Shown piece after piece: positions 14,016-14,189 of a stretch of 64,000 nucleotides of DNA (within the stretch, counting starts at the first letter, position 1; each line of letters begins with the position of its first letter). This stretch comes from Escherichia coli (GTDB lineage Bacteria > Pseudomonadota > Gammaproteobacteria > Enterobacterales > Enterobacteriaceae). The notes beneath the pieces are model-generated. The model was not told the origin of the DNA, did not search any database, and saw only the letters and a program-made list of their open reading frames with translations. Where the stretch lies: assembly GCF_036507355.1 (NCBI RefSeq), contig NZ_AP027877.1. The stretch is one strand, 5' to 3'. The position numbers and the translations under genes are program-made.

Positions 14016-14189
14016 CATGACCTCTATATATTTATCTCCGGCGGGTCTGACGTTTTTTTTATGACGCCCATTATCCACCGGGTCGTTCTATCCGTCGGTA
14101 TCTTACAAAATTGTTAACAATTTTTAAACAACAAACGGCAACCGATTTGTCTATTCGCTAATAACCTCAATACATTCATGAGATTACCA

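Follow-up and report, generated by a model that had tools for sequence, protein, structure and literature searches.

An 18-bp palindrome upstream of lpd in Escherichia coli is probably the centre of the ArcA-P operator that overlaps the lpd promoter

The perfect 18-bp palindrome located between aceF and lpd in Escherichia coli is, with a probability of about 0.88, the centre of the known operator for phosphorylated ArcA (ArcA-P) that overlaps lpd's own sigma-70 promoter. The window analysed here is the whole stretch of E. coli DNA of 64,000 nucleotides, in which aceE, aceF and lpd (lpdA) are all encoded on the minus strand (Table 1). A sequence-only reading of the same DNA had described an exact inverted repeat in the aceF-lpd intergenic region, about 90 bp upstream of the lpd start, had placed it at the internal lpd promoter and had considered it part of a regulator operator, while stating that the regulator could not be assigned. 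The distance to the lpd ATG was measured as 91 nt and the repeat spans -31 to -14 of the lpd transcription start, in agreement with the position claimed. The operator claim holds as well, with ArcA-P as the regulator, given a ChIP-seq peak, a 21-bit box, repression and an earlier binding study; the regulator is assignable, because the element has already been described as an ArcA-P site.

The palindrome, AAAATTGTTAACAATTTT, is a reverse-complement repeat with a spacer of 0 within the 207-bp aceF-lpd intergenic region. It has a single match in the 64-kb window when up to three mismatches are allowed, and it is the longest perfect palindrome found there. First-order Markov shuffles of the 64 kb contained on average 0.30 palindromes of at least 18 bp, with at least one in 26% of the shuffles, so the length of this repeat alone is unremarkable; what raises it above chance is its placement, at the core of a promoter and an operator that have both been mapped. 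Many Enterobacteriaceae also keep the element as an 18-20 bp palindrome. Three more perfect palindromes, each of 16 bp, occur in the window, namely GATGATAATTATCATC (10377-10392), within a His/Asp-rich coding stretch of yacH, and CCAAAGTTAACTTTGG (33810-33825) and AGCAGAAATTTCTGCT (39052-39067), both within long ORFs; when the 18-bp repeat is included, four palindromes of at least 16 bp were observed against 1.2 expected.

Table 1. Features of the window around the lpd promoter and of its flanking genes, in window coordinates
Feature	Position	Strand	Remarks
aceE	18793-16130	-	
aceF	16115-14223	-	stop codon 14223-14225
G+C-rich hairpin with 8-bp stem, then T run	14196..14215	-	directly 3' of the aceF stop, 5' of the lpd promoter
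Three-repeat ArcA-P site TTGTTTAAAAATTGTTAACAATTTTGTAAGATA	14099..14131	-	K-12 127679-127711, -38 to -6; coordinates transferred
18-bp ArcA box TTGTTTAAAAATTGTTAA	14114..14131	-	DR1 + DR2, 11 bp centre to centre
DR1 TTGTTTAAAA	14122..14131	-	overlaps the -35; half-site 6.8 bits
DR2 TTGTTAACAA	14111..14120	-	self-complementary central half-site, core of the palindrome; half-site 10.5 bits on both strands
DR3 TTGTAAGATA	14099..14108	-	TTGTAAAATA in K-12; 12 bp from DR2, overlaps the -10; 4.5 bits against 8.6 in K-12
Palindrome AAAATTGTTAACAATTTT	14107..14124	.	K-12 127686-127703, -31 to -14 of the lpd transcription start, by alignment
Candidate opposite-strand ArcA-like box ATCTTACAAAATTGTTAA	14100..14117	+	right arm + complement of the -10; 15.6 bits here, 19.0 in K-12
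-35 hexamer TTTAAA	14123..14128	-	from the K-12 promoter scan
-10 hexamer TAAGAT	14100..14105	-	minority allele; TAAAAT in most E. coli
Inferred lpd transcription start	14093	-	K-12 127717, transferred by alignment; Park Table S6 gives -38 to -6 for 127679-127711
lpd (lpdA) CDS	12591..14015	-	gene under the palindrome promoter; ATG at 14015
IS3-family orfB (rve integrase core)	10834-11646	+	
IS3-family orfA (HTH_Tnp_1)	10493-10777	+	
Truncated yacH (DUF3300)	9903-10454		

The internal lpd promoter is ArcA-regulated and its transcription start has been located 195 nt upstream of the lpd ATG (PMC2759082), a distance that puts the start at K-12 position 127717. A consensus scan of K-12 returned TTTAAA-17-TAAAAT at 127682-127710, which fits this start exactly, and by alignment the lpd start of the present strain would lie at window position 14093. 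Seen against these elements, the palindrome covers the last two bases of the -35 hexamer and the spacer except for one base. The hexamer TTAACA was also considered as an alternative -35 and was rejected, as inspection by eye showed no usable -10 at a distance of 16-19 bp from it. A promoter scan of the window itself returned no promoter, because the allele of this strain drops the -10 to 4/6.

A 501-bp query around the site found a match in 5424 of 5426 complete E. coli genomes, with the best matches at 99.8%, and in the alignment with K-12 MG1655 (locus L001) the promoter region differs by one base, which lies in the -10. The variant is at window position 14102, as C on the plus strand and as the G of TAAGAT on the lpd strand. 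With G in place of A, the -10 match falls to 4/6 (5/6 with A), the DR3 score to 4.5 bits (8.6 with A) and that of the opposite-strand box to 15.6 bits (19.0 with A). The idea that this G is unique to the strain was discarded, since 126 complete E. coli genomes out of the 5411 that match carry the exact 81-bp promoter with G, and both NU14 and the type strain, ATCC 11775, belong to these; Salmonella diarizonae and Siccibacter have this G at the -10 as well.

Other features of the locus were observed around the promoter. The hairpin between the aceF stop and the lpd promoter looks, from its stem and T run, like a terminator; Rfam gave no family at the gathering score, and its sub-threshold matches on 14196-14215 (OrzO-P and others) are probably due to the hairpin alone. 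About 117 extra bases are present in the lpd 5' leader of K-12 (L001 336-475) and absent here (window about 14040-14075), so that the leader measures 195 nt in K-12 and 78 nt in this strain. This extra segment is a multi-copy repeat, found at a median of 5 places per genome, and 3434 of 5426 genomes have it in full length at least once; we presume that it resembles the ERIC/IRU intergenic repeat. Downstream of lpd, an IS3-family insertion sequence (window 10480-11700, plus strand) adjoins the truncated yacH. Any single complete E. coli genome covers at most 65% of window 9100-12600, so this insertion is unusual at the locus.

ArcA is described as a member of the OmpR/PhoB family that recognises direct repeats 11 bp apart, and its boxes as pairs of direct repeats whose centres are 11 bp apart, often accompanied by extra repeats (PMC3798270). 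At lpdA, Park 2013 (PMC3798270) reports ArcA ChIP-seq peaks in both replicates, at 127646 and 127683, and Table S3 of that work gives an 18-bp ArcA box, ttgtttaaaaattgttaa, at 127682 (+), with 21 bits, among the top scores of the table. The direct repeats at 127682, 127693 and 127705 are listed with 9.4, 11.7 and 10.7 bits, respectively, and Tables S4 and S6 describe the ArcA-P site as TTGTTTAAAAATTGTTAACAATTTTGTAAAATA, 127679-127711, with three direct repeats spanning -38 to -6 (PMC3798270). In the same source, lpdA is an ArcA-repressed gene with a 6.1-fold change, its sigma-70 occupancy is reduced without O2, ArcA repression is proposed to act via promoter occlusion, and earlier in vitro DNA binding at lpdA is credited to Cunningham et al. 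1998. The lpdA promoter of Plesiomonas is likewise bound by ArcA-P, as determined by EMSA and ChIP-qPCR, and is bound by none of PdhR, FNR and CRP (PMC10572922). ArcA occupancy, repression and the transcription start are thus known from published experiments in K-12, and these data should carry over to the present strain by sequence identity, which is complete bar the one base in the -10.

The palindrome lies wholly inside the published 33-bp three-repeat ArcA-P site, with the left arm and the centre inside the 21-bit box. In the lpd sense, the order TTGTTTAAAA-A-TTGTTAACAA-TT-TTGTAA(A/G)ATA represents three ArcA half-sites. An ArcA weight matrix was built from 114 published boxes other than that of lpdA, and these training boxes have a median of 15.8 and a maximum of 21.2 bits. 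With this matrix the 18-bp box of the window (minus strand) reaches 21.3 bits and ranks first among the 127,966 positions of the two window strands. The next independent match is the published acnB box, ATGTTGCTTTTTTGTAAA, at 9216-9233(-) with 17.0 bits, and the published pdhR box, TAGTTTAATAATCGTTAA, is also recovered, at 19925-19942(-) with 15.7 bits. Five positions of the window score at least 15 bits, all at the lpd, acnB and pdhR promoters, and three of these are at lpd. Weaker neighbours of these matches were observed at 9194-9211(+), 19786-19803(-) and 19841-19858(-). The sequence match, the position in the promoter and the conservation described below are direct observations. The -35 TTTAAA and the -10, either TAAAAT or TAAGAT, both fall within the ArcA site at -38 to -6, which is the overlap expected of a repressing site. 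It had also been suggested that the element might simply overlap the promoter hexamers with no protein footprint; the overlap part of this suggestion stands, as the palindrome occupies the spacer at -31 to -14, and the part on the footprint does not, as the site is bound by ArcA-P.

The ArcA array lies over the -35 TTTAAA, the 17-bp spacer and the -10 TAAAAT (TAAGAT here), with DR1 and DR2 separated by 11 bp and DR3 located 12 bp further, and in the mechanism proposed phosphorylated ArcA would bind it when respiration is limited. DR1-DR2, that is the 18-bp ArcA box, would be the most securely occupied part, and bound ArcA would keep RNA polymerase off, leading to lower lpd transcription from this independent promoter. 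The palindrome is composed of DR2, flanked by the A-run at the end of the DR1-DR2 spacer and by the T-run before DR3. Its symmetry would arise from TTGTTAAC, which holds the self-complementary GTTAAC, and from the A-rich spacer before it, which mirrors the T-rich one after it. Because ArcA reads direct repeats, the dyad would not be a recognition feature, and the symmetry appears to be a by-product rather than what ArcA reads; the main text of Park 2013 (PMC3798270) makes no mention of 'palindrom'.

The direct-repeat model does not itself predict the symmetry, since only 0.055% of the 33-mers simulated from the ArcA array model (n = 100,000) contain a perfect palindrome of at least 18 bp, compared with 0.35% of composition-matched random 33-mers. 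To what extent the symmetry is kept in relatives can be read from lpd loci of Enterobacterales, of which 80 were fetched and 79 analysed, one (L005) being left out for too little upstream sequence. The palindrome block aligns without gaps and is the most conserved stretch of the intergenic region in the 79 loci. The right arm together with the -10, TTAACAATTyTGTAAAcT, is near-invariant in the 76 distinct sequences, and the hexamer TTAACA is invariant in all 76 of them. This right arm falls on low-information positions of the sense-strand ArcA model, yet it is near-invariant order-wide. The left arm is kept in Enterobacteriaceae, Pectobacteriaceae and a few other genera and decays elsewhere; in Erwiniaceae, Yersinia, Serratia and Hafnia/Edwardsiella, it is replaced, together with DR1, by a -35 of the TTTGCA type. 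In the distant families the G of the sense DR2 is often A or T, this high-information G varying in 26 of the 76 distinct sequences, and the outer symmetric pairs 7-10 are complementary in 3-6% of the distinct sequences. For the sense ArcA box the scores are 17-21 bits in Enterobacteriaceae, Pectobacteriaceae and some further genera, about 11 bits in Hafnia, and less than 10 bits in Erwiniaceae, Yersinia and Serratia.

Within the group that conserves the left arm, a 20-bp perfect palindrome, CAAAATTGTTAACAATTTTG, is found in 18 of 43 distinct sequences, and in the E. coli-like group the palindrome is broken by a single substitution in about half of the distinct sequences. The palindrome is 18 bp long in E. 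coli, E. albertii and Kluyvera. Most Enterobacteriaceae (loci L006-L059, such as L007 Salmonella, L017 Klebsiella and L015 Citrobacter) carry C for A before the palindrome, which extends it to 20 bp and turns the -35 into TTTCAA; the element lies about 85-240 bp upstream of lpd. No compensatory pairs were found in the symmetric positions among the 76 distinct sequences, all variation being one-sided, a pattern that speaks against a stem in DNA or RNA and against selection acting on dyad symmetry as such. The earlier step from a perfect palindrome to a dyad-symmetric dimer operator is in need of correction, as ArcA reads direct repeats, the symmetry is lost in distant families and compensatory changes are absent. 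In related lpd upstream regions, where a check of conservation had been proposed, the right arm is conserved order-wide; the left arm and the symmetry are not conserved beyond Enterobacteriaceae and Pectobacteriaceae.

With DR3 placed 12 bp from DR2, a spacing at which DR3 showed no protection at putP (Park 2013, PMC3798270; Park & Kiley 2014, PMC4173790), the published model may fail to explain the right half of the palindrome. A tentative alternative, which we consider rather unlikely and which would refine the ArcA explanation without replacing it, is that the symmetry is functional for ArcA, with two opposed and mutually exclusive boxes sharing the palindromic half-site TTGTTAACAA. The sense box would cover the -35 and the spacer, the opposite one the spacer and the -10, and the opposite-strand box would be the older and be conserved order-wide. 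The score of this box, 15.6 bits here and 19.0 bits for the K-12 version ATTTTACAAAATTGTTAA, can be compared with the median of 15.8 bits of the published boxes, and a box of at least 15 bits occupies the matching alignment position in almost every one of the 79 orthologues, also in those of Erwiniaceae, Yersinia and Serratia, whose sense box stays below 10 bits. TTAACA, which is the complement of TGTTAA, is the hexamer invariant in 76 of 76 sequences, and the substitutions in both arms fall on positions tolerated by ArcA half-sites. Moreover, the 11-bp spacing of the opposite-strand box avoids the 12-bp problem of DR3, so this box could explain why the right arm is so strongly conserved. However, most of the 15 bits seen in the distant families are contributed by one perfect half-site and the A/T-rich spacer, with a partner half-site of 1.7 bits, and this partner complements the -10, which promoter function keeps conserved in any case. 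In addition, the orthologues are related by descent and so are not independent observations, and the tables and passages of Park 2013 on lpdA give no opposite-strand box, the plus-strand box alone being listed. It is likewise rather unlikely that the opposite-strand box, made of the -10 complement, the spacer and AATTGTTAA, is ancestral across Enterobacterales, that the 21-bit sense box was a later acquisition of Enterobacteriaceae and Pectobacteriaceae, and that ArcA-P could occlude either hexamer in two registers.

Readings that do not involve ArcA fare worse than the ArcA-P operator. Fis or another nucleoid protein could bind A/T-rich promoter DNA of this kind, and the degenerate Fis pattern GNNYAWWWWWTRNNC fits GTTTAAAAATTGTTA, which overlaps the left arm, with one mismatch; a preprint also lists lpdA in the Fis, CRP and ArcA regulons. 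Nevertheless, the pattern is very degenerate, the match lacks the terminal C, and a second mismatch arises in most other Enterobacteriaceae, whose base at pattern position 5 is C, while a search of the literature for lpd found no mapped position of a Fis site; we regard this explanation as improbable. Near-matches to the degenerate IHF and Fis patterns were in general weak and uninformative. Reading of the palindrome by a second, dyad-symmetric dimeric regulator, of the GntR, LacI or CRP/FNR family or uncharacterised, would agree with a palindrome longer than the ArcA model predicts and reaching 20 bp in many Enterobacteriaceae, and to our eye the outer AATTGT...ACAATT loosely recalls GntR-type half-sites. 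Such a regulator is very improbable in view of the one-sided variation of the arms, the loss of symmetry in Erwiniaceae, Yersinia and Serratia, the lack of a second copy in the 64-kb window at up to three mismatches, and the mismatches to the known consensus sequences, which amount to 5/12 for PdhR, 3/10 for FNR, 4/10 for CRP, 7-8/19 for Fur, 4/12 for TyrR, 3/8 for LexA and 3/10 for the LacI type, the last lying off the palindrome.

The consensus scan of the 207-bp intergenic region found no operator of PdhR, FNR, CRP, Fur, TyrR, Cra, LexA or the LacI type that fits the palindrome. For PdhR this upholds what had been said from the sequence, namely that the element does not match the PdhR box, and PdhR has been reported not to bind the lpd promoter (Cunningham 1998, as cited in PMC10572922). 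The operon's pdhR promoter carries the PdhR box ATTGGTNNNACCAAT, likewise an A/T-rich dyad with outer AATTG...CAATT; this box differs from the palindrome in half-sites that are 3 bp closer and in the 5 of 12 mismatched positions. A structural element, either a cruciform of supercoiled DNA or a hairpin in the read-through pdhR-aceEF-lpd mRNA, would suit a perfect spacerless inverted repeat, which operon read-through transcripts would carry. It is extremely improbable, because the predicted hairpin is weak, at -3.6 kcal/mol and a z-score of -1.6, with 12 of 200 shuffles folding at least as well, the orthologues have no compensatory changes, and no Rfam family matches at threshold.

The ArcA-P operator, which remains the preferred reading, makes the palindrome an ordinary and largely explained element that was already known, as it is within a described ArcA-P site. 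Lipoamide dehydrogenase is common to the pyruvate, 2-oxoglutarate and glycine-cleavage complexes, and a separate ArcA-repressed lpd promoter lets the cell supply E3 apart from aceEF and tied to the respiratory state. This is textbook regulation in E. coli, to which the identity of the element adds nothing new. If true, the reading with opposed boxes would be a small refinement of the architecture and evolution of ArcA sites: to judge from the sequence, the palindromic half-site would let ArcA read the site in either orientation, and what is conserved order-wide is the half left unused by the published model.

Among known systems, the operator is closest to that of lpdA in K-12, with the same locus and sequence; the present strain differs in having G for A at position 4 of the -10, which is position 7 of DR3, and in being without the leader repeat of about 117 bp. 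The three-repeat operators of icdA and putP (PMC3798270, PMC4173790), as described there, are alike in having TGTTA-type arrays over sigma-70 elements and in acting by promoter occlusion. The lpdA operator differs from these two in that its DR2-DR3 spacing of 12 bp belongs to the class in which DR3 is unprotected at putP, and in that its central repeat is self-complementary.
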